Positions 12,337 to 35,863 of a stretch of 64,000 bases of DNA are shown piece after piece. The DNA is taken from IMG/VR virus record IMGVR_UViG_3300013121_000022, positions 108,505-172,504 of that record. One strand, written 5' to 3'. How positions within the stretch are numbered: the stretch's first letter is position 1; each line of letters starts with the position of its first letter. Made by a program: the position numbers and the translations under genes. Below the pieces are notes generated by a model. The model had not been told where the DNA came from and made no database searches. It saw nothing but the letters and a program-made list of their open reading frames with translations. Source of the stretch: a virus (Duplodnaviria; Caudoviricetes).

Positions 12337-12930
12337 ATGACAATCAAAGCAATCGTCTTTGATCTTGATGGGGTTTTGGTGGATACGCCTGAACTTCACT
12401 ATGAAGCTCTCAACCAAGCGTTGGGGCTTTTTGGTTTTAATATCTCTCGACAAGATCACGATTCAAAATTCAATGGCCTGCCAACTCGGACTAAACTGGA
12501 AATGCTAAACGTTGATCCGGCGATTCGCGGATTGGTAATGGAACTAAAACAACAATATACTCGGCAGGCAATTTCCAAAATTCAACCAAACTATCAAAAG
12601 ATTATGATGCTGAGAAGTCTATCGTGGCGCTATCATCTTGGAGTTGCTTCTAACGCACTCCAAGACACCTGTTATTCGATATTGGAAGCAGCTCGACTGG
12701 ATTCGTATTTTACAACTGTGTGGGGCGGAGATGGGGTGAAAAAAACAAAGCCCGATCCAGAGATATATAGGAAGATTATCAAAAAACTTGAAGTACAACC
12801 AGATCAATGCTTGGTTCTGGAAGACACTCAATACGGTGTTCAGGCCGCACTAGGTGCTGGTGCTCAATGCATTCAAGTAACCTATCCTCAAGTTCATAGT
12901 GGATTATTCGTGCGAAAGGGCTTATTATGA
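12337..12930 (+). CDS. HAD-superfamily phosphatase (beta-PGM-like)
   Basis: FDLDGVLVD, KPDPEIY, LEDT. Confidence 0.9.
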   Translation: MTIKAIVFDLDGVLVDTPELHYEALNQALGLFGFNISRQDHDSKFNGLPTRTKLEMLNVDPAIRGLVMELKQQYTRQAISKIQPNYQKIMMLRSLSWRYHLGVASNALQDTCYSILEAARLDSYFTTVWGGDGVKKTKPDPEIYRKIIKKLEVQPDQCLVLEDTQYGVQAALGAGAQCIQVTYPQVHSGLFVRKGLL

Positions 12931-13679
12931 ATATAGTGATTCCCATGTCGGGCGCGGGAAAAAGATTTTTGGATGCAGGCTATACCGATCCAAAACCATT
13001 CATTTTAGTCGATGGTCAACCCATGATTATGCGTGTGACCAACAACGTCTCGGTTAGATCATCCAAAAATCATAACAACATAGTTTGGCTGGTTAGAACT
13101 GAACACCTTGATCGCGCTCAAGATATTCAGCAGGAAATGCGAGATCGCAATATCATTCCCAATGCAACCTACAACATCATAAAAGTTTCCGGCCTCACAC
13201 AAGGCGCGGCGTGTACTGTATTAATGGCCTCTGGTATTATCAATAACGATCAACCTTTAATTATTGCTAACTCCGATCAACTGACCGATTCTTCGGTTGA
13301 TGGATTTGTTGAGTATTGTCAAAAGAACAACGCGGATGGCGGTATTATCACGTTTCGATCAAGCGCCGACAAATGGAGTTATGTTCGTTTGGATAAGCAA
13401 GGAATATTGGTTGATGAAGTTGCTGAAAAAGTTGTCATTTCAAATCTTGCCACTCTTGGAATTTACTATTTTCGGCGTGGTTCTGATTTTTGTTCAGCGG
13501 CTGTGAAATCTATCAGGTATAACATGCGGCATCGCAATGAATTCTATGTTGCACCTGTATTCAATGAAATGATTTTGCTTGGCAAGCGAATTTATCACTA
13601 CGAAATTCCAGATTATTGTGCACATGGACTTGGAACTCCCGAAGACCTTGAAAGGTATTTACTGCATGGACGCCAATAA
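12927..13679 (+). CDS. sugar nucleotidyltransferase-like protein
   Basis: IVIPMSGAGKRF..PKP, NSDQ, EFYVAPV, GLGTPEDL. Confidence 0.85.
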   Translation: MNIVIPMSGAGKRFLDAGYTDPKPFILVDGQPMIMRVTNNVSVRSSKNHNNIVWLVRTEHLDRAQDIQQEMRDRNIIPNATYNIIKVSGLTQGAACTVLMASGIINNDQPLIIANSDQLTDSSVDGFVEYCQKNNADGGIITFRSSADKWSYVRLDKQGILVDEVAEKVVISNLATLGIYYFRRGSDFCSAAVKSIRYNMRHRNEFYVAPVFNEMILLGKRIYHYEIPDYCAHGLGTPEDLERYLLHGRQ

Positions 13680-14394
13680 CTCATATACACAAATGCAGAA
13701 AAAATATTACGAAGAAAACGCGACGATAATGGCAGTGGAGGATCATCGCGGCCACAATAACAATCCAGATTATTACGGAATTCTATTATCAGACATCACA
13801 ACCAATCCAGAATACTGGACTGGTAAAACCGCCCTAGACTTTGGTTGTGGAACTGGACGAAATATTGCCAATCTGTATCGTTTAGCAAAGTGGAAATTTG
13901 TCGATGGTTGCGACATTGCGCGAAACAACTTGTATGAAGCACATCGTTTATTGACGGAACGTGGTGTTTCCGGTTTTACACTTTACCCCGTCTCAGGCGT
14001 TGATCTTGGTGGTATCCCAAGTAAAAAATATGACTTTGTAATGTCAACCATTGTTCTTCAACACATCGCCGTGTGGTCAATTCGACTGAGTATTTTAACT
14101 GACATCTTTCGAGTGATGAAATCGGGCGGATTATTCTCGTTTCAAGTTGTTAAATATCCGTTGCCGCGAGATCGATATAATATCGCTGACTATCATGAAG
14201 ACAAATGGGATGCGCCAAATACAAATGGAGGGTACGATTTTAGCGTAGATAACGAACAAGATTTGATAAATGACTTGACACGCATTGGGTTTGAAGTGAT
14301 TGAAACAATAAGCAGACCTGAATGGGAATATATCAATCAAGAATACGCTCACAATAACAATCGTTGGGTATTTGTTAAGGCGCGTAAACCATGA
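13666..14394 (+). CDS. class I SAM-dependent methyltransferase
   Basis: ALDFGCGTGR, YDFV, VLQHI. Confidence 0.88.
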   Translation: MDANNSYTQMQKKYYEENATIMAVEDHRGHNNNPDYYGILLSDITTNPEYWTGKTALDFGCGTGRNIANLYRLAKWKFVDGCDIARNNLYEAHRLLTERGVSGFTLYPVSGVDLGGIPSKKYDFVMSTIVLQHIAVWSIRLSILTDIFRVMKSGGLFSFQVVKYPLPRDRYNIADYHEDKWDAPNTNGGYDFSVDNEQDLINDLTRIGFEVIETISRPEWEYINQEYAHNNNRWVFVKARKP

Positions 14395-15149
14395 TAAATG
14401 GTACGTATATCTTTCATGTTTTTGAAACACTCACGATTTCAAATTTGTATTCGGCTATCGATAGCATAGTAAGTCAGACGTTCGATAGCAATCAGTTTGA
14501 CTTCGTGTTGTACAATTCGTCGCGTTATTGGGAAAATTCCGAGAGATTGCTCGATGGAATTCAGTCTCGGTTGCATGGCATGTTTCGGAGTTTTAGATTT
14601 ATCAATCCAGACGTTCCTACCGACTCGACTCTAGCTGATTTACAGTGGCAAATCAGCAACATTGATGGATCGGACTTCTATTTCACACATAAGGCCGATT
14701 TTGTGTTAGGAGATAAAACTATCCAGAGAGTTGCGAATTTATTTGAGAACGTACATCAGCCTCTTTATGTTAGTTTTTGCAAGTTCGATGTCAGAGAAGA
14801 TGTCAACGATCTTGAAACTTATATACTCTCAGGTAGATCGTTTGACAGAATTTTAGATCGTGCGGATGCGTGGGATGTAACTGCTTGCCTTCCAAAAGAT
14901 TGGGAAACCCACGACTACAGGTTTCTTGGCTATCGGGGATGGGATGGAACAATGCATTGCTACAACGAACAAGCTAGACGAAATATACAACTTACTGACT
15001 TTTGCAGCTTGGACACTGTGCAATCAAATCGAACAAACGGCATCGACTGGATTTTTGGTGATACTCGATTTTGGGCGCTTCATAAGTTTCATGCCTTACC
15101 TAACGGCAGGGGCGATGCCCGTAAAGATTTAGATGGAAAACGATTCTAA
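14391..15149 (+). CDS. putative glycosyltransferase-like protein
   Basis: DSIVSQTF motif, operon context. Confidence 0.45.
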   Translation: MINGTYIFHVFETLTISNLYSAIDSIVSQTFDSNQFDFVLYNSSRYWENSERLLDGIQSRLHGMFRSFRFINPDVPTDSTLADLQWQISNIDGSDFYFTHKADFVLGDKTIQRVANLFENVHQPLYVSFCKFDVREDVNDLETYILSGRSFDRILDRADAWDVTACLPKDWETHDYRFLGYRGWDGTMHCYNEQARRNIQLTDFCSLDTVQSNRTNGIDWIFGDTRFWALHKFHALPNGRGDARKDLDGKRF

Positions 15150-16033: not shown

Positions 16034-16243
16034 ATGCCATACCGAAATGTTCGTAATGATGCAAGAAATTCCGATCCAAACGTTACTTTGCAAGAATTAA
16101 TGCAAATGTTGAGCACTGTAATAAGTTGTGGAGGATGTGCCAACTTGACATCTGTTGCCTCACAACATACTTGCAAGACATGTGGCCGGACTCTGTGTGG
16201 CGAATGCGGTAATCTCTGTAAAGATCATCGAAAGGTTTCGTGA
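16034..16243 (+). CDS. small zinc-finger protein
   Basis: CGGC, CKTC, CGEC, CKDH. Confidence 0.6.
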   Translation: MPYRNVRNDARNSDPNVTLQELMQMLSTVISCGGCANLTSVASQHTCKTCGRTLCGECGNLCKDHRKVS

Positions 16244-16652
16244 TGTTCATGAATGAAACTGGTATTTCCATAGGATTTGATACGGTAATTCCACCAAACG
16301 ATTTTTGCGTTTTTGTTGTACCCATATTTGATATCAAGTAGTCATTCGTTTTCACCGAGCAAACCGCCTGAACTTAGATGCTGTAGAGTTGCTAACACAG
16401 ACCTGAGTGTTGTAGTTGAATCAATTAATTTCCGCTCACGTAACGAAAATTTTTTTGGAGCTGTTTTTGCTCTGTATGCTCTAACCGCAGGATCGTTATC
16501 CAAAATTATTACATTGGAAAAACCTCAAGTCTGCTTCTCTGTTCTATCACAATCTAATTCAGGTCGTTCAAATCACCGATTGGCGGTTGAGGCATTATAC
16601 TGCGACAAACCCATTGTGTTTGCATATGTAGATCGACATCGAAAGACATTCC

Positions 16653-16681
16653 TTGACTTAGTTGCTGAACTAGGGTAATAT
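16653..16681 (+). promoter_or_regulatory. sigma70-type promoter of the RNase P RNA
   Basis: TTGACT-N17-TAATAT just upstream of the P1 helix. Confidence 0.75.
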
Positions 16682-16687
16682 CAACGT

Positions 16688-17070
16688 GATCGGCGCAGAT
16701 CAAGTTGTCGAGCTCGAAAGAGTTAGGAACTTCCCGACGATACAGGAGCAATCCTGAAAACCCTCCACATGAAAACAGCAAGTGTGGACAGTTCGACTGA
16801 ACTGATGTCAACGGCAACAGAGAACATTCCGCTCGAAAGAGTAACGGGTGAAAAGGACGGTGATACCCGTCCGGCATGTCAAGGTAACTTGCTTGCATAG
16901 GCGACAGGACAGGGGATCGCAAGGTGGCGCAAGATAGGCTACGGTTTATCTTGTAGAACCGCAGTATAAACGGTACGACAGAATAACACTCAGTCGCACT
17001 AGGATATACCATCAACCCGATGAGAAAGATGACAACCTAAACAGAATCGGGGGTATGATCGGCGCAGATT
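16688..17070 (+). ncRNA. rnpB: RNase P RNA (divergent, phage-encoded)
   Basis: P2 GTTGTC/GACAAC, P3 GAAA hairpin, P4 AGGAACTTCCCGA with ACAGAATCGGGGGTA, P5 CGAT/ATCG-CAAG, GCAACAGAGAA and GGGTGAAAAG joiners. Confidence 0.88.
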
Positions 17071-17145
17071 GGTTCTTGACAAAAAAATATAACCGATCCA
17101 TAATAATCTCAACTTCCACTATCTCACAGAAAGAGGATACCGAAC

Positions 17146-17322
17146 ATGGAACTCAAAATTGTTTCTGCAAAAGCTGGTGATCAGTACGTGAATCTGGTGG
17201 GTCAAACATTTCCGGTGGTTCGTGAACTGGAAACAATCTACGTGATTGAAGTTGAGGGCAAAAGCGTCTATGTTCGTGAGGACGACTGCGAAGTAAAAAT
17301 CATTGAACCAGTTGCGGCCTAA
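17146..17322 (+). CDS. small hypothetical protein (58 aa, below ORF-track cutoff)
   Basis: GAGG RBS; MELKIV..EPVAA. Confidence 0.6.
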   Translation: MELKIVSAKAGDQYVNLVGQTFPVVRELETIYVIEVEGKSVYVREDDCEVKIIEPVAA

Positions 17323-17382
17323 ATAATTATTCTACTTGACAGGCTTTATCAAGTCAGGTAGAATAATTTGCGTGAGGGTCAT

Positions 17383-17616
17383 ATGAAATATACCGATAAG
17401 TTTGAAGTGGACACTAACGGTAAAATCATTGGTGCTGAAACGCATCCGAATGCGCCCGTAATTGTAAATTTTTATCGTGTTGTCAACGGCAAGAAGCGAT
17501 ACAATAAACTTGCGAAGCGGTTACATTTTTTTACCGAACAACACTTTCAGAGCAACACCGATTTCTTGAATCGAATGAGCGCACGTAAAGATCGGGTATA
17601 TTATCGGGCAAACTAA
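17383..17616 (+). CDS. hypothetical protein
   Basis: TTGACA/TAGAAT promoter and GAGG RBS. Confidence 0.6.
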   Translation: MKYTDKFEVDTNGKIIGAETHPNAPVIVNFYRVVNGKKRYNKLAKRLHFFTEQHFQSNTDFLNRMSARKDRVYYRAN

Positions 17617-17623
17617 ATAACAA

Positions 17624-17694
17624 GCGGGTATAGTATAACGGTATTATAAAAGCCTTCCAAGTTTAAGACGCGGGTTCGACTCCCGCTATCCGCT
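17624..17694 (+). tRNA. tRNA-Gly(TCC)
   Basis: loop CTTCCAA, U73. Confidence 0.88.
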
Positions 17695-17835
17695 CAGAGA
17701 ATAGCACGAGTGACTAACGTTGCGAAATGGTTGAATACAGAGTCCTGACGTTGATCTATACTGCTTAGGCACACATGGATCATGAGGTCAAAAAACTAAT
17801 CCTCAACACATCCGGCATTATGCTAATTTTGCCAT

Positions 17836-19253: not shown

Positions 19254-20147
19254 ATGGGATACGCACACATCGAAAATCTTTACAAGCCACATGTAAAAGA
19301 ACTTCTCTTTATGTTTCGGGAAGTCTATGCACTCGAAAAGATACATGGATGCTCCGCCGAAATTAAGTTTACCGCCGAGATTGGAACTGGCAAAGTTGAT
19401 GTTAGTTTTGACGGTGGGCTATTGTCGCCAGAACAATTCTCAAACATTATCGACAAGTCTATTGTAGAAAAGTTCGTGGAACTGAACAAGCAATACAACA
19501 ACGAAAGCATGTCTGTGTTTGGTGAGCTCTACGGTGGATCGATCAACCATATGAGCAAGGTGTATGGAGAGGAAAAACGCTTTGTTGTTTTTGATGTCAA
19601 GGTTGGCGATGTTTTCTTGTCTGTGCCACAGGCCGAAGACACAGCGAATCGACTTGGACTGGAATTCGTATCTTACAAGCGCATTCCGGTAACGATTGAA
19701 GCCATTGATGCTGAACGGGACGCCGAATCGGTTCAGGCTATCCGCGTCGGAATGGGTTCTGGCAAATATCGCGAAGGTGTGGTTTTGCGTCCGTTGTTTG
19801 AAGCACGACTGAATAACGGCGAGCGAATTGTAGCCAAACACAAGCGTCCAGAACATTCTGAAACAAAGACTCCGCGAACTCTGAATGAGGATGAACTGAA
19901 AGTCCTGTCCGATGCCAATGAAGTTGCAGAGGAATGGGTTACGGAAACCAGACTCCAGCATGTCTTGGACAAGATTACCGGAACACGAGATATGAAGTTG
20001 ATGGGAACGGTAATAAAGGCCATGACTGAGGATGTGTACCGAGAGGCGCATGGCGAAATCGTGGAATCCAAAGCTATTCAAGGCGCAATCAGCAAGAAAA
20101 CGGTTGCGCTTTACAAGAACTACCTTGAAACCGACAGCGTTCAATAA
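19254..20147 (+). CDS. ATP-dependent RNA ligase (Rnl2-like)
   Basis: motif I EKIHG, GELYG, FDV, EGVVLR, terminal K motif. Confidence 0.85.
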   Translation: MGYAHIENLYKPHVKELLFMFREVYALEKIHGCSAEIKFTAEIGTGKVDVSFDGGLLSPEQFSNIIDKSIVEKFVELNKQYNNESMSVFGELYGGSINHMSKVYGEEKRFVVFDVKVGDVFLSVPQAEDTANRLGLEFVSYKRIPVTIEAIDAERDAESVQAIRVGMGSGKYREGVVLRPLFEARLNNGERIVAKHKRPEHSETKTPRTLNEDELKVLSDANEVAEEWVTETRLQHVLDKITGTRDMKLMGTVIKAMTEDVYREAHGEIVESKAIQGAISKKTVALYKNYLETDSVQ

Positions 20148-20384
20148 CAAAATTGAAGCACTGCTAGTCGATTTACATCGATGGGGAGTGCTTCAATGTA
20201 TTATCCGACAAGATCAAATGTTTTGCACTCCACCTGTAGCCGGACGTCCATCAATTGTTGATATGTTTGAAGTTGAATGGAGCGTTCATTCAGTCAAAGA
20301 CGTTCCAGAGATCGTCTTGTACGTGACGGACACTACAGCCTACACGCGATTGCACAAATGGAATCAGAAAGAAAGCTTACTGAC

Positions 20385-21110
20385 ATGGACAATCTAAAAG
20401 AGATTGGGCAAACATGGATTGTTGAATTTCCAAGAACAAAACATCTTCCATTTCGCCCTAACGCCACTCGTGATGACCTAATTGCTACCCAAGTTCAGGC
20501 AAGCATTATTTTTGATCCGGCAGTTGTCGTATCAACAACTGAAAAAGTAGACGGGGCACAATTGGGAGTTGGAATTGTTGATGGTAATCTTTGTATCCGC
20601 AACCGAAATCACGTGCTCAATAAAGGTTATCTCAGTCGCGGGGCGGCAGGCCGACAATTTGCGCCAACATGGACGTATTTTTACAAGCGAATTGAAGCAC
20701 TAAAGGCAATGGAAAAGTTCGCAGGTGAGCCTTTGGTAATTTACGGAGAGTGGTTGTATGCGGTTCATTCAATTGTTTATGACACTTTAACTGTTCCGTT
20801 TTTGAGTTATGATATTTATTTGCCGGAACAAAAGATATTTATTAAAGGTGCTCTGGCTAGATCGCTACTAGAAAACTTTGGATGGTCAGTTGTTGAACAA
20901 CTTGAAAACAAGGGATCGTATGAAGAATTGTCGAAGTTGTGTCACCAAAAATCGGCCTATGGATCGACTAAGCGAGAGGGTGTTTATCTGTCGGTCTGCG
21001 CCGATAAAAAATCAGTCACACATCGATTCAAAATGGTACGTTCAGATTTCATTACTGGTGAACACTGGTCTAAGCGATCTATTATCAAGCAACCTATGGT
21101 GAGGTTTTAA
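20385..21110 (+). CDS. RNA ligase family nucleotidyltransferase
   Basis: PRTKHLP, TEKVDG, YGEW, REGV, RFKMVR. Confidence 0.85.
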   Translation: MDNLKEIGQTWIVEFPRTKHLPFRPNATRDDLIATQVQASIIFDPAVVVSTTEKVDGAQLGVGIVDGNLCIRNRNHVLNKGYLSRGAAGRQFAPTWTYFYKRIEALKAMEKFAGEPLVIYGEWLYAVHSIVYDTLTVPFLSYDIYLPEQKIFIKGALARSLLENFGWSVVEQLENKGSYEELSKLCHQKSAYGSTKREGVYLSVCADKKSVTHRFKMVRSDFITGEHWSKRSIIKQPMVRF

Positions 21111-22180: not shown

Positions 22181-22355
22181 CGTGGGATTGAAAGTCACAT
22201 GGAATGACAACGGATTAACCCGATGGGATTATTTTGAACTTGTCATTCGCAACGGGCAGGAATTAGTTTTGTCGGGTTTTGGAAAAACCGTTCACATCAA
22301 GGTTGAGGACTTGAAATATATCGAACCATTTGGAAAGTTACCAGAAAACGGTTGA
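22170..22355 (+). CDS. hypothetical protein
   Basis: AAGGTG RBS. Confidence 0.5.
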   Translation: MEISVGLKVTWNDNGLTRWDYFELVIRNGQELVLSGFGKTVHIKVEDLKYIEPFGKLPENG

Positions 22356-22490
22356 TGCCATTTGTATACTCTGTGATGTAGAAATCCAGCATACCGCGTT
22401 CGCGGAGGCATAAGAATGGGTGCAACCTGTGGTCTTGTCTGAGTAGGCAAAGGTCATGAACTTTGTTTGAATGGCATCATCCGTTTTCTG
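22342..22490 (+). ncRNA. candidate structured RNA, about 150 nt
   Basis: about 21-bp closing stem CAGAAAACGG-T-TGATGCCATTT/GAATGGCATCA-T-CCGTTTTCTG. Confidence 0.55.
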
Positions 22491-22569
22491 ATAAATTCGG
22501 TGGTACGATAACGCAAGTAATCTTGAAATTGATCCTTGACAGGATAGCAAAAGCGACTATAATTTTTTT

Positions 22570-23570
22570 CTGTTGGCCTGAACTTTACAAAAATTACTGA
22601 GGGCGCTAATGGAGTTCAACTCTCCATCAGTAACATATCCAAATTGGAGTGGGGTAGTGCATACCCAAATCAAGGGAGGAAGCAAGCGAAAGCAAGCTGA
22701 AACCTGAGATTGAAACTCTAAGGCGGAGGGAACATCTAGTTCCCTTAGATAAAACCCGTAAGGGTAATAAAGGCGGATACCAATGGTCTGCCGGATGCAA
22801 ATCTCAACTAGACGAACTATCTTCGCTTGTGTTGGTGTAGGTGGTCGGCAAGAAATTGCAGGCTACTGAACAGCTAAGCCCACTGAAAAGGTGGTGAGTC
22901 CGAAAGACAAAACAATAAGATAGAGGGTAACAAGTTCGTTCGCAAGACGGGCGCTTACAAGACAATCGGCATCACTCCTAGCGGAACTTGCCAGAAAGTT
23001 AAGCGGTTACTGACAGCAAATCAGTGGCGGCAAAATGTGTGGTGTGGTAAAGGGATGCGTAAAAGTGTCTACAACCCGACAGGATACATCACGCACAATT
23101 GGAAAAACTCTGCCTGAAGCTCAGGCTTGGCCTCTTAAGCAAATGCAATCGCAAAAATAAAGTCCTGTAGGTGTACGAGATTTACAGATACCCCTTCATT
23201 ACCGTAACCAATCGGTGAATCAAGGCCACGAGCTTTGATATGTGCAACGAGTGAAGGATGTTCGGCGGCTTGCAACCGTTGGGCATCAGGCGCGGCGAGT
23301 GCATAGAAGATTTCGTAAACCTGAGTGGGTTGGGCTAAACCCACAAAAAGAAACTAAGCGACATCGTAAGCACAACGATACGCAAGGATAGCGGGGTAAA
23401 GTGTAGGATGATTGGGGTAACTCGATCTTGGAACAGAGCGGACACTGTGACGAACAGAACTGCTTGACTCTACACTAAAAAACGGAATGTGGCCTGAACC
23501 GTTTCTTGAAACGACTACCCTCTGGACTATATAGTCGAATGGACATATAATTCAGAGAGTGGTCATTTTT
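22570..23570 (+). ncRNA. large ornate ncRNA, about 1 kb (GOLLD-like candidate)
   Basis: consensus TTGACA/TATAAT promoter upstream, no + strand ORF, many GNRA hairpins, terminal hairpin plus T run. Confidence 0.65.
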
Positions 23571-23597
23571 GTTTAACCGAAAGATGGAAAATTTTAC

Positions 23598-24194
23598 ATG
23601 AAGATGAATGCTGTTATGGTCGGAGATGTACACGGCAAGTGGGATCAATTCAAGTCGATTGCTGAAAAGGCAACGATGCCTGTGTTTCAGGTCGGTGACT
23701 TTGGATTTGGACTACGGAATCGTAAGCCCAACATCAAAGGCGATTGGCGTTTCATTCGCGGCAATCATGACGATCCAAGTTTAGCTAAAAAGGACAGTCA
23801 TTATGCTGGCGACTTTGGCGTTTGGAACGGAGTGTTCTTTGTTTCGGGCGCAGCTTCAATTGATGTTGGTCAGCGTACTACTGGTGTTGACTGGTGGCCG
23901 GATGAACAATTGAATTACACGCAAATGCAAGAGGCATACAATCTGTATGTAAGATTTAAGCCAAAAATTGTTATCACTCATGATTGTCCAGATCATTTCA
24001 AGTCGCATTTTATGACCTATGTCATCAAGCGATCCTCGACCGGAGTTTTATTGAATGCACTATATGAATTTCATGAGCCAGAGTTGTGGGTTTTTGGTCA
24101 TCACCACAAAAGTCAGCAAACTCGATTCGGAAAAACAATGTTTGTTGGCCTTAGAGAACTTGAAACCCAAGAAATTGAATGGACGATTCCATAA
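23598..24194 (+). CDS. calcineurin-like metallophosphoesterase
   Basis: GDVHG, VGDFG, GNHD, THDCP, GHHH. Confidence 0.9.
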   Translation: MKMNAVMVGDVHGKWDQFKSIAEKATMPVFQVGDFGFGLRNRKPNIKGDWRFIRGNHDDPSLAKKDSHYAGDFGVWNGVFFVSGAASIDVGQRTTGVDWWPDEQLNYTQMQEAYNLYVRFKPKIVITHDCPDHFKSHFMTYVIKRSSTGVLLNALYEFHEPELWVFGHHHKSQQTRFGKTMFVGLRELETQEIEWTIP

Positions 24195-33174: not shown

Positions 33175-33302
33175 TTTTATTGTATCACCCTAAACGGAAG
33201 CTTTGGCCGATCTGTGTGCGCTTCGGAAGCTAGACTACGATACTCACAGGAAGATGAACGGAGAAGTAATTACTCTCAAAAATCGGGAAGTGGTACAATT
33301 AT

Positions 33303-33374
33303 GCCATTGTAGCTCATTGGTAGAGCATCTATCTGAAGAATAGAGGGTTGTGGGTTCGATTCCCACTGATGGCA
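33303..33374 (+). tRNA. tRNA-Phe(GAA)
   Basis: loop CTGAAGA. Confidence 0.9.
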
Positions 33375-33378
33375 CTAT

Positions 33379-33458
33379 GCGTTGGAGCGGTGATGGGTGA
33401 CACCAACTGACTGTAAATCAGCCGATTCGTCTTGCAGGTTCAAATCCTGTCCAACGCA
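33379..33458 (+). tRNA. tRNA-Tyr(GTA)
   Basis: loop CTGTAAA, extended variable arm. Confidence 0.88.
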
Positions 33459-33484
33459 CTGATAATTTCTTGAAAGGAACTTGA

Positions 33485-33679
33485 ATGGAGATCAAAAAGG
33501 GTCACACACTGGTTTACTCGATTGAATTAATTCGAGTTGCATCAGACAAAAACAAGGCATGGCCGAAGTATAAATACCTGATTATCGACGGAAAAAAAGT
33601 TCGATTTGAATTTGAATCGACATCCTATGCCAGTAGTTATTTTGTCGTTGCCAAGTACAAAAGAGAAATCACTTATTAG
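33485..33679 (+). CDS. hypothetical protein
   Basis: GAAAGGA RBS. Confidence 0.55.
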   Translation: MEIKKGHTLVYSIELIRVASDKNKAWPKYKYLIIDGKKVRFEFESTSYASSYFVVAKYKREITY

Positions 33680-33682
33680 TTT

Positions 33683-33753
33683 GCATCTATGGCGTAACGG
33701 TAGCGCAGTAGCCTTTTAAGCTTTTGGTCAGGGTTCGACTCCCTGTAGATGCA
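33683..33753 (+). tRNA. tRNA-Lys(TTT), second copy
   Basis: loop CTTTTAA. Confidence 0.85.
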
Positions 33754-33756
33754 CAT

Positions 33757-33830
33757 GCGCTTGAAGCTGAGTCTGGAACAGCAAGAGACTCTTAATCTCA
33801 AGGAAGTGGGTTCGATGCCCATCAAGCGCA
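33757..33830 (+). tRNA. tRNA-Lys(CTT), second copy
   Basis: loop CTCTTAA. Confidence 0.88.
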
Positions 33831-34053
33831 CACACAACACGAGTTGTTGATCATCGTGCAAGGAACAGTAAGCATTGTGGATGGATGTATTACAGGTAGA
33901 TGGACATTTGCAAAGCGTGGTCAAAATTACGATGTCAAGTTAGTAAAACAATGTGTACTCAATCGGGTCTAGGCAATGTCTCAGATAGGAGCTCCACTTC
34001 ATTTGAGTAAGTCCGACAGTCGAAAGCGATCTAATAAGGCTGGAGCTGAAAAA

Positions 34054-34067
34054 GATCGGCGCAGATC
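34054..34067 (+). repeat. GATCGGCGCAGATC motif
   Basis: perfect copy in an ORF-free spacer. Confidence 0.85.
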
Positions 34068-34215
34068 AACTTTATCACACTACAGGAAGCGATTCCACCT
34101 AAGAAGCAATACGAGTTTGGTAGGCGACTGAATGGACTTGATTCGCGGCAAGGTCTAAACAGTGAACGTACAATGAACGAAAACATCAAACGCCTTGTGT
34201 GATAAAATCTCTGCA

Positions 34216-34818
34216 ATGAGACGTATCCGACACGGAACTTCAATCAAATTCGCCTTAAATAAATTTTCGCCCATGCAACACAAAGATGAATTCTTATGGT
34301 TATGGGATCATCTGCCTCCACTTGAAACAGTTTTGGAAATTGGCATGGGTTATGGCGCAACAGCGGCGTTGTTTGCTTTTTCGGGCGCACAGGTTACAAC
34401 GATTGATCCAAAAGTAAAAACCGAATTGTATCAAGAGGTTGATGAAAACGAAGAATACACATTTGACTCACCGGAGTTCAAAAAGTTAGCGTGGTGGGCA
34501 AAGCCAGTTCGCTGGATAAGAAAATCAAGTCTTGACAAAACAGTAATTAGTGATGTAGAATTACCAAGCAATCAGAAATACGATTTACTACACATTGACG
34601 GAGATCATTCGCCAGAGGTATGTAGATCGGATTGGGAAACGTTCTCTCCAATGGCAAAGATAGTTGCCATTCATGATATTTATGGATGGGACAATGATAT
34701 GCACTGGAAGGATGGGCCAAGAGGTTTGTGGAGTGAACTTCGGGAAAGTAAGCAGTATAAAATGCAAGAGTGTTGTTTGCATGAAAGCGGCGGAATGGGA
34801 TTGATATGGATGTCATAA
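34216..34818 (+). CDS. class I SAM-dependent methyltransferase (Methyltransf_24-like)
   Basis: VLEIGMGYG, DLLHIDGDH, IVAIHD. Confidence 0.85.
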   Translation: MRRIRHGTSIKFALNKFSPMQHKDEFLWLWDHLPPLETVLEIGMGYGATAALFAFSGAQVTTIDPKVKTELYQEVDENEEYTFDSPEFKKLAWWAKPVRWIRKSSLDKTVISDVELPSNQKYDLLHIDGDHSPEVCRSDWETFSPMAKIVAIHDIYGWDNDMHWKDGPRGLWSELRESKQYKMQECCLHESGGMGLIWMS

Positions 34819-35069
34819 CTGCGGAATATACGATTAGGCCAGCACGATATGCCAAAAAAATGTTTGCAGTAGAAACCGTTCCAAATGGAACGGGATGGAA
34901 AACAAAAGCAGATCGGGCGGCAGAGGCCGCACAAGGAAAAACAGTTCGTTACTCACATCGCGAAAAGTCGTACATTTTATCGGCTAGACAAGTCGAAAAA
35001 TTCAAAGCTTTGATGTCAAGTAACAACAATATTTTCACTAAAGAATTGCTCGCGAGGACTAACGGCTAG
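34806..35069 (+). CDS. hypothetical protein
   Basis: 87-aa ORF; 3' end overlaps tRNA-Asp. Confidence 0.55.
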   Translation: MDVITAEYTIRPARYAKKMFAVETVPNGTGWKTKADRAAEAAQGKTVRYSHREKSYILSARQVEKFKALMSSNNNIFTKELLARTNG

Positions 35070-35122
35070 GTCGTTTCTCTGTCAAAGAAACAGTCAAGCG
35101 GGTTCGACTCCCGTCGTGGGCG
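35048..35122 (+). tRNA. tRNA-Asp(GTC)
   Basis: loop CTGTCAA, G73. Confidence 0.85.
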
Positions 35123-35128
35123 CACGTT

Positions 35129-35321
35129 GTTGTTAGCATTGAGAGTGTAGCACATTTTTGATTGACGCCGACTTGTTGCGTCGGACGTGCTATCACACGA
35201 CAATCAAAAGTCCCTCACAAGGGATAAGTTGTCAGGCAACCATTGATAGATGTGACAATGAAAGGGCTACCGGAACTTATCCGGTTTCGATCTTGATCGA
35301 AACCCTCTCAATGCTAACAAC
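35129..35321 (+). ncRNA. candidate pseudoknotted RNA, 193 nt
   Basis: perfect 17-bp closing helix; crossing helices TAGCAC/GTGCTA and TTTTGATTG/CAATCAAAA. Confidence 0.65.
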
Positions 35322-35323
35322 TA

Positions 35324-35453
35324 ATTTACAAGTAGTAGCATATAACATACGATAGCATAAGGCTGACTACTTTGAGGCTGAAGCTTGGTTGCAAACAATT
35401 AGTAAGCCGGAACAGCTCTGACTACGCGAAGTTGTATGCTGTTGCTTGTAAAT
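35324..35453 (+). ncRNA. candidate structured RNA, 130 nt
   Basis: 23-bp closing helix ATTTACAAGTAGTAGCATATAAC/GTTGTATGCTGTTGCTTGTAAAT with G-U pairs. Confidence 0.6.
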
Positions 35454-35459
35454 TAATCT

Positions 35460-35531
35460 GCCGCTGTAGGCTAATGGATAAACCGCTAGTCTTCGGAACT
35501 AGCTTTCAGGGTTCGAGTCCCTGTGGCGGCG
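35460..35531 (+). tRNA. tRNA-Arg(TCG)
   Basis: loop CTTCGGA. Confidence 0.9.
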
Positions 35532-35644
35532 CTGAGTTATCTGGTTGCTTGCACGAGATGGATCGATACGTTGACGTGAGTTATTCTCAATAAAATTTAT
35601 GTATTGGCGTGAAGAACCAAACATAGAAATAACCAGACGTTTAT

Positions 35645-35863
35645 ATGACCGAACTTGTTCGCGAACTAATCAATAAACTGCTAGACGGAAAGCGGATTTA
35701 TCTTCCTAACGGACAAGTAATCGGCATGGGAGAAGATTTTTCAATCGGTTATATGTATATGACTCAGAGTGGCGAATGGTTCGTTGGTGCAATAACCATT
35801 GACTTGACTGGTCTGGTTCAGGTAATAGAAAAATACAATCTCTCTCTTGATAATGTTCGCTAA
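35645..35863 (+). CDS. hypothetical protein
   Basis: 72-aa ORF. Confidence 0.55.
   Translation: MTELVRELINKLLDGKRIYLPNGQVIGMGEDFSIGYMYMTQSGEWFVGAITIDLTGLVQVIEKYNLSLDNVR

Follow-up and report, generated by a model that had tools for sequence, protein, structure and literature searches.

A full-length RNase P RNA homolog of the Anaerolineae subtype in a complete tailed-phage genome

Known RNase P RNAs and the Phage Locus

Type A RNase P RNA, represented by Escherichia coli M1 RNA (rnpB; Rfam family RF00010, RNaseP_bact_a), contains helices P1-P5, P7-P15 and P16/17, a P4 pseudoknot with a bulged U, the P13 and P14 hairpins, and the conserved regions (CR) CR-I to CR-V. Type C RNase P RNA corresponds to type A plus P10.1 and P15.2 (PMC7191817). 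Type C is found in Chloroflexi and also mixes type-A and type-B-like elements. Large phages carry other host-derived RNA genes of the translation apparatus, namely those for tRNAs and tmRNA; no paper reporting a virus-encoded RNase P RNA was found in the literature. The DNA analysed here, referred to as the window, is the terminal 64 kb of a complete virus record (IMGVR_UViG_3300013121_000022; 172,504 bp, 43% G+C, 141-bp terminal repeats). It carries, at window positions 16688-17070 and in or beside a tRNA array, a full-length bacterial RNase P RNA homolog of the Anaerolineae (Chloroflexota) subtype.

The phage RNA has all of the type A elements named above. It differs from type A in having no evident P6, no GGU motif in L15, and an extra hairpin between P5 and P7. 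Four of its eight P4 pairs depart from the type A consensus, all with compensation (A-U to C-G, G-C to U.G, G-C to C-G, and G-C to A-U). With type C RNA, which comes from the same phylum as the subtype, the comparison is by description only: set against PMC7191817, the phage RNA has 3 nt between the P10 and P11 5' strands, a type-B-like element at the P5.1 position and two hairpins after P15. These elements are not obviously the same as P10.1 and P15.2 and are not equated with them.

Family Assignment

A sensitive scan of positions 16500-17200 gave a full-length match to RF00010 at 16692-17070 on the plus strand (model positions 1-367 of 367; 58.9 bits, E 2.2e-17). It was also the sole RF00010 match in a scan of the whole genome (172.5 kb; E 1.3e-18), and the class B model (RF00011) had no match there at E <= 1. 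The folding energy of the RNA is better than that of 100 out of 100 dinucleotide shuffles (z = -3.97). The identification as a phage-encoded RNase P RNA, proposed in a preliminary description made from the sequence without database searches, is thereby borne out; of the models named there, the type A model matches, below its gathering score, and the class B model does not.

At default gathering thresholds, an Rfam scan of the window yields 40 tRNA matches and the tmRNA and misses the RNase P RNA. The gathering score is 100, a threshold poorly tuned for the Anaerolineae lineage, because undisputed cellular RNAs of this lineage also fall below it. Among 56 genomes of one Anaerolineae order, 44 have one RF00010 match each and only 24 have a match above the 100-bit cut-off; the other 12 have no match at E <= 1e-5. 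Under-detection of Anaerolineae RNase P RNA by Rfam is likely an annotation gap.

Covariation with Cellular Relatives

Covariation was assessed in an alignment (A1) of the phage RNA and seven Chloroflexota-type RNAs. RNAalifold predicts 99 pairs for A1, 53 of them with compensatory changes. In a controlled count, 94.5% of the cells at paired positions are paired, compared with 34-43% when the partners are slid; doubly changed pairs number 53, compared with 10-16 in the slid controls, and none of 500 shuffles reaches any of the observed measures. The preliminary description proposed to look for covariation across related phages; it is seen here with cellular homologs, and no related phage copy was found.

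The signal extends to peripheral elements. The hairpin at the P5.1 position (helix 5) has four of five pairs changed on both sides and covaries in all the aligned Chloroflexota RNAs. Helices 6-8, in the P7-P9 region, covary as well, and the two 3' hairpins (helices 15 and 16) have 8/10 and 3/4 pairs changed on both sides. The cellular RNAs of A1 also hold the P5-P7 hairpin, the long L8, P7, the 3' hairpin with the UAACAC loop and the short hairpin before J18/2, with different sequences. The P5.1 hairpin, the long L8 and the two 3' hairpins are lineage traits shared with cellular RNAs.

The phage RNA is 46-52% identical to its cellular relatives. With nhmmer it matches 25 cellular Anaerolineae RNAs at E values from 4e-16 to 4e-7, and in a first nhmmer comparison with genomes carrying its P4 pattern (see below) the closest were Anaerolineae RNAs (L163, E 3e-15). 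Of 136 positions without variation among the cellular RNAs it retains 110 (81%), including those of CR-I to CR-V. It has the features by which the Anaerolineae-type group was operationally defined, i.e., the P4 strands AGGAACUUCCCGA and UCGGG(G/A)GU, the P5.1-position hairpin, the long L8 and placement within the clade.

Anatomy of the Phage RNA

Helices were verified by direct base-by-base pairing checks, in preference to counting MAFFT columns, where one-column register slips gave an understated 71 of 99 pairs. The elements are as follows, all on the plus strand.

16688-17070 (+): RNase P RNA gene, 383 nt, bounded by the two strands of P1; RF00010 match, folding, and covariation with cellular homologs
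16688-16701 (+): P1 5' strand; 12/14 pairs with 17057-17070; one copy of the 14-mer GATCGGCGCAGATC
16704-16724 (+): P2 5' strand (16704-16709; 6/6 pairs with 17031-17036) and short P3 hairpin (16711-16724; GAAA loop, 5/5 pairs)
16725-16737 (+): CR-I and P4 5' strand, AGGAACUUCCCGA; 16729-16731 and 16733-16737 paired, U16732 bulged
16738-16741 (+): P5 5' strand, CGAU; 4/4 pairs with 16916-16919 (AUCG)
16743-16756 (+): hairpin at the P5.1 position, CAGGA-GCAA-UCCUG; 5/5 pairs
16761-16804 (+): P7 5' strand (16761-16764), P8 (16765-16787; 13-nt loop) and P9 (16789-16804)
16807-16856 (+): P10 and P11 5' strands, J11/12 (ACAGAGAACA, CR-II), short P12 (GAAA loop) and J12/13 (GGGUGAAAAGG, CR-III); from the RF00010 alignment
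16855-16896 (+): P13 (16855-16872; 6/6 pairs) and P14 (16874-16896; GUAA loop; 4/4 plus 4/5, i.e., 8/9 pairs)
16901-16924 (+): 3' strands of P11, P10, P7 and P5, then J5/15 (GCAAGG, CR-IV, with the conserved adenosines)
16924-16962 (+): P15 (16924-16927 with 16959-16962) around the P16/17 hairpin (16930-16953; UACG loop, 10/10 pairs)
16964-17022 (+): two 3' hairpins, one long (16964-17009; loop with UAACAC) and one short (17010-17022)
17023-17056 (+): J18/2 (AGAAAGAUG), P2 3' strand (17031-17036), and CR-V ACAGAAUCGGGGGUA with the P4 3' strand (17047-17054)
17057-17070 (+): P1 3' strand, the second direct copy of the 14-mer (last base T); 12/14 pairs with 16688-16701

The order of helices given in the preliminary description (P1-P5, P7-P9, P12-P14, followed by ACAGAA at 17041-17046) is reproduced by the pairing checks. 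P4 has the strands described there, AGGAACUUCCCGA and UCGGGGGU, with 8/8 pairs and the bulged U16732 kept. The remaining pair counts are 4/4 for P7, 5/5 for P8, 6/6 for P9, 2/2 for P10 and 6/6 for P12. Three of the four P5 pairs differ on both strands from the cellular CUCC/GGAG.

In the specificity domain, CR-II (J11/12, ACAGARA) reads ACAGAGAACA at 16817, and CR-III (J12/13, expected GGGUGAAA) reads GGGTGAAAAGG at 16846. The CR-II and CR-III positions that are invariant in cellular RNAs are retained. The P10 and P11 5' strands are separated by just CAA (16809-16811). On the catalytic side, J5/15 (GCAAGG at 16919-24) is invariant in A1, and CR-V ACAGAAUCGGGGGUA begins at 17041. The L15 internal loop lacks the GGU motif for CCA binding, its 3' side being UAGAA, and no partner is evident for P6 (J5/7-L17), the P16/17 loop being UACG; the cellular Anaerolineae relatives likewise have no GGU and no evident P6 partner.

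Cellular Anaerolineae RNase P RNAs (e.g., L200, L184, L187, L163, L156) have the same CR-I/P4 5' and CR-V/P4 3' strands as the phage RNA. They also share with it the P5.1-position hairpin, the long L8 with the motif GAAA(A)CAGCAAG, P13 together with P14, and two hairpins ahead of J18/2, one with the UAACAC loop (common to L163, L156 and the metagenome RNA L140). A mix of type-A-like and type-B-like hairpins had been noted as a peculiarity of the phage RNA; the P5.1-position hairpin does stand alongside P13 and P14, and the combination is ordinary in cellular Anaerolineae and Chloroflexota RNAs. In contrast to its cellular relatives, which are roughly 400-500 nt long, the phage RNA has 383 nt, a P5 of CGAU/AUCG, an inserted 5-nt 3' internal loop at P15/P16, and a P1 made of two copies of a phage repeat.

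The P4 Variant in Cellular RNAs

In the P4 variant, the near-universal A-U and G-C beside the bulged U are replaced by C-G and by U.G or U-A. The preliminary description regarded it as rewritten by the phage. This does not hold: AGGAACUUCCCGA is present in 26 of 27 parsed cellular RNAs of one Anaerolineae order (that of the closest genome), and the phage RNA nests among cellular RNAs. The P4 3' strand in this order is UCGGGGGU in 18 RNAs and UCGGGAGU in 8, a difference that turns U.G into U-A and so further supports the U.G pair as real. Within the order the variant is carried by the only RNase P RNA detected per genome and is therefore compatible with essential function.

A gapped pattern requiring both variant strands at the correct spacing, with the three inner pairs left free, found no further carrier in IMG/VR. 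In metagenomes it found 12 contigs, of which 10 are genuine RNase P RNA loci: nine have RF00010 matches of 49-216 bits, and the tenth carries an archaeal RNase P RNA beside a large-subunit rRNA gene. The other two are chance matches, with no RNA match and non-complementary inner triplets. Two of the contigs bear plainly cellular genes (histidine kinase, MutL, peptidases, 6S RNA). The inner three pairs are fully complementary in all 10 genuine contigs, yet varied (CGA/UCG, GGA/UCC, CCA/UGG, GCC/GGC). A separate search of viral contigs with the P4 14-mer including the leading T of the phage gave 120 loci, all chance matches by nhmmer.

Among about 185,000 species genomes the pattern matches 18, a count that understates the spread of the variant, since most Anaerolineae RNAs exceed the allowed gap. 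The carriers are Chloroflexota (Anaerolineae and others), Thermobaculum, Rubrobacter, Elusimicrobia, a Micrarchaeota archaeon and one Alloscardovia. Several distant lineages with the variant (Chloroflexota, Thermobaculum, Rubrobacter, Elusimicrobia, Micrarchaeota and another archaeon) each have their own covarying inner pairs, and the exact inner triplets of the phage (CGA/UCG) are the Chloroflexota version. Chloroflexota and a few other phyla have the unusual P4 as a lineage trait; it is no viral invention.

P1 and the Dispersed 14-mer

Both P1 strands are direct copies of the 14-mer GATCGGCGCAGATC. Two direct copies can pair because the motif is nearly palindromic. Its 13-base core GATCGGCGCAGAT has 23 exact and 10 one-mismatch copies in the 172.5-kb genome, where about 0.005 are expected. 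The copies of the 14-mer in the window are:

16688, 17057, 25876, 32896, 34054 (+): 14-mer GATCGGCGCAGATC
6506, 58022, 62150 (-): 14-mer GATCGGCGCAGATC

The flanks of the copies are unconserved, and copies lie both within and between genes, several of them directly after a -10 box. Their orientation is polar, minus over the genome ends (0.5-17 kb and 160-171 kb) and mostly plus at 26-146 kb. Possible functions are an operator, a polar Chi/KOPS-like signal or a recombination site. The P1 sequences of cellular relatives are unrelated to that of the phage, which therefore replaced P1 with its own motif.

Cellular Source and Search for Phage Relatives

A maximum-likelihood tree was built from the phage RNA, 31 cellular Chloroflexota RNAs (26 of them from the Anaerolineae order), nine other P4-variant carriers and L140, an uncharacterised metagenome RNA. 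The phage RNA falls inside the clade of the Anaerolineae order (22 tips, support 1.0). L140 (metagenome contig Ga0315314_1000269, 2673-3415, minus strand) is an Anaerolineae-type RNase P RNA. A canonical tmRNA gene lies 5 nt away and three tRNA-Met genes are close by, while the open reading frames (ORFs) around it have no Pfam match.

In these bacteria rnpB forms part of tRNA operons and lies within 8-55 nt of tRNA genes. In one Anaerolineae metagenome-assembled genome (G001), a cluster of tRNA-Arg, rnpB and tRNA-Met-Trp-Gly has the tail genes of an integrated siphophage directly on one side and cellular genes on the other. This layout would offer an obvious route for the capture of rnpB and tRNA genes by imprecise excision. 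The prophage (L172/L173, contig C915, about 36-66 kb) encodes TerL, portal, capsid, tape measure, Dit and a Gp37-like protein. That the G001 rnpB (L163) might be a second phage copy was considered and set aside as not the simplest reading: the genome has no other RF00010 match, and the gene lies between the prophage end and cellular genes.

Searches for viral relatives were negative. The RNA has no blastn match among GenBank phages, and the major capsid protein of the phage has no close relative in IMG/VR. The nearest cultured phages by this protein (about 40% identity) are Streptomyces Stanwilliamsviridae, five of which have no RF00010 match at E <= 1. A gapped pattern for the specificity domain and three for P4 had no match in viral contigs, in a search from which the window's own record was possibly excluded. 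Four Logan contigs with homologs of a neighbouring 252-aa protein share with the phage a sugar-modification cassette only (40-43% identity, gene order rearranged) and have no RNase P RNA.

Genome Setting

The genome has the hallmarks of a tailed phage, including a capsid protease, the major capsid protein (phrog_1623) and a tape-measure protein. ARAGORN finds 46 tRNA genes and a tmRNA gene in the window. The features that flank the RNA or relate to RNA metabolism are:

16653-16681 (+): sigma-70-like promoter TTGACT-17-TAATAT; 9/12 consensus matches, predicted by consensus only
17076-17104 (+): strong promoter of the next unit, TTGACA-17-CATAAT; 11/12 consensus matches, the downstream boundary
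19254-20147 and 20277-21110: two RNA ligase-family proteins (PF09414), 2-4 kb downstream of the RNase P RNA
22292-23989 and 33262-35829 (genome coordinates): CCA-adding enzyme (phrog_2244) and a protein weakly similar to RNA 2'-phosphotransferase

The -10 box of the upstream site ends 7 nt ahead of the first P1 base, which agrees, as a consensus match, with the earlier proposal that the gene has its own promoter. The downstream promoter starts 6 nt past P1. No terminator-like site occurs in 16200-17700, and none separates the RNase P RNA from the next promoter.

The two RNA ligases, the CCA-adding enzyme and the 2'-phosphotransferase-like protein make up a tRNA and RNA maintenance kit. The sugar-modification cassette (12337-15149) comprises a HAD hydrolase, a nucleotidyltransferase, a methyltransferase and the 252-aa protein of unknown function. 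Many small ORFs near the RNase P RNA have no family assignment.

Predicted Substrates and Protein Partner

The 3'-CCA is not encoded in 44 of the 46 phage tRNA genes, and 38 of the 46 have U (T in the DNA) at position -1. U(-1) is the preferred partner of the conserved J5/15 adenosine. Several neighbouring tRNAs are just 1-3 nt apart (e.g., 7591/7595, 28268/28272, 33375/33379, 33754/33757 and 37463/37467), and an endonuclease is therefore needed to separate them. The phage tRNA genes thus appear to match the RNA in two respects, the missing CCA and the CCA-adding enzyme corresponding to the absence of GGU, and U(-1) to the kept J5/15.

As noted in the preliminary description, no RnpA-like protein is visible in the window, and a six-frame search with PF00825 (E <= 10) extends this to the complete phage genome. 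RnpA is present in all five Chloroflexota genomes tested. Because the phage has no rnpA, a hybrid enzyme of phage RNA and host RnpA would be the simplest model. The upstream 121-aa ORF was considered as a cryptic RnpA and rejected, having no Pfam match and no RNR-type motif.

Proposed Role and Alternatives

The best reading of the locus, and one we consider likely, is a captured host rnpB retained as a working ribozyme that would pair with host RnpA. A phage ancestor would have taken rnpB from an Anaerolineae host, and the gene would then have evolved fast under selection for its fold, with P3 and P12 shortened and P1 rebuilt from two copies of the phage-wide 14-mer. During infection the phage RNA would assemble with host RnpA, and the holoenzyme would cleave 5' leaders from the pre-tmRNA and from the phage pre-tRNAs, which lack CCA, are rich in U(-1) and are often tightly spaced. 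The effect would be more RNase P capacity, or capacity secured while host gene expression fails. With moderate confidence, the RNA may further be proposed to be an active ribozyme in such a hybrid holoenzyme, specialised for the phage's own substrates: the pre-tmRNA and polycistronic pre-tRNAs with U(-1), no CCA and tight spacing.

Several observations weigh against retention as a working ribozyme. The RNA has changed 26 of the 136 positions invariant in cellular RNAs (19%), compared with at most 6% in leave-one-out cellular controls, and its RF00010 score is below the gathering score. Its terminal branch in the tree measures 1.33 substitutions/site, roughly tenfold the median of 0.13. Relaxed constraint might explain such a branch, and its length might also distort the placement; the exact sister group calls for caution, and the phylum-level source does not. 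P3 and P12 are reduced to minimal GAAA hairpins and L13 differs from that of cellular relatives. Binding of host RnpA to the phage RNA, given its replaced P1 and its P3 of 5 bp, is a predicted pairing only, and expression and catalysis are likewise predictions from sequence. The phage probably infects Anaerolineae, a host assignment drawn from this one gene. No related phage copy was found in the phage and viral collections searched.

Many of the same observations would be expected if the gene were a decaying passenger, gained with neighbouring tRNA genes by imprecise prophage excision and now drifting under relaxed selection as a non-functional relic. The changed invariant positions, the long branch, the score of just 58.9 bits and the lack of relatives in phage collections all point that way, and the rnpB at the prophage junction in G001 makes accidental capture plausible. 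However, a neutral relic at about 50% identity should show broken helices, whereas here all are intact and many pairs are doubly changed. CR-I to CR-V are also intact, a promoter-like site stands 7 nt ahead of P1, and P1 has been rebuilt as a 14-bp stem. Decay is on balance an unlikely explanation.

A repurposed RNA would serve as a decoy or regulator that binds host RnpA or pre-tRNAs, or would have its specificity moved to other structured RNAs of the phage. The phage has no RnpA, so that its RNA must compete for the host protein, and the unusual P1, short P3 and changed L13 would suit a new role. A pure decoy, however, needs neither the catalytic core (P4, J5/15, CR-V) nor the T-loop-reading modules (CR-II, CR-III), all of which are conserved, and the phage tRNA genes bear the standard U(-1) signal. 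Repurposing is regarded as quite unlikely.

The bolder version of the hybrid-holoenzyme proposal dispenses with RnpA, the RNA working alone or with an unrecognised phage protein as cofactor. It would account for the lack of a PF00825 match in the complete genome, and the unassigned small ORFs nearby would supply candidates. Against it, the adjacent 121-aa, 58-aa and 82-aa ORFs have no RnpA-like RNR motif, RnpA is available in the likely host lineage, and RNase P RNAs of bacteria depend on the protein in vivo. Independence from RnpA is therefore judged very unlikely.

Host DNA mis-joined into the phage contig at assembly might be suggested by the G+C content of the RNA region (about 49%, compared with 43% for the genome), but such an artefact is hardly credible for a complete record with 141-bp terminal repeats in which the RNA has no more than 52% identity to any cellular copy, lies between phage-type promoters and has at both ends copies of the phage's own dispersed 14-mer.

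Implications

The novelty of the locus lies in its carrier; the RNA itself belongs to a known family and a recognisable cellular subtype. RNase P RNA counts as a housekeeping ribozyme universal to cells, and the phage copy has its full length, an intact specificity domain and a donor that can be traced. The annotation gap it exposes is broader than the phage, since the Rfam class A threshold misses the phage RNA and over half of the Anaerolineae genomes searched.

The phage translation toolkit of tRNAs, tmRNA, CCA-adding enzyme and RNA ligases would be extended to tRNA 5' processing by a captured, working rnpB. The gene also provides a host prediction for an uncultured 172-kb phage, namely Anaerolineae, a group with few known phages. 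As a natural experiment, the RNA tests the extent to which P1, P3, P12 and L13 can vary with the core kept. If the phage RNA is active in a hybrid holoenzyme with host RnpA, RNase P would become a virus-encoded activity, and the RNA would be a naturally trimmed, fast-evolved variant with which to dissect the bacterial enzyme's need for its peripheral elements.

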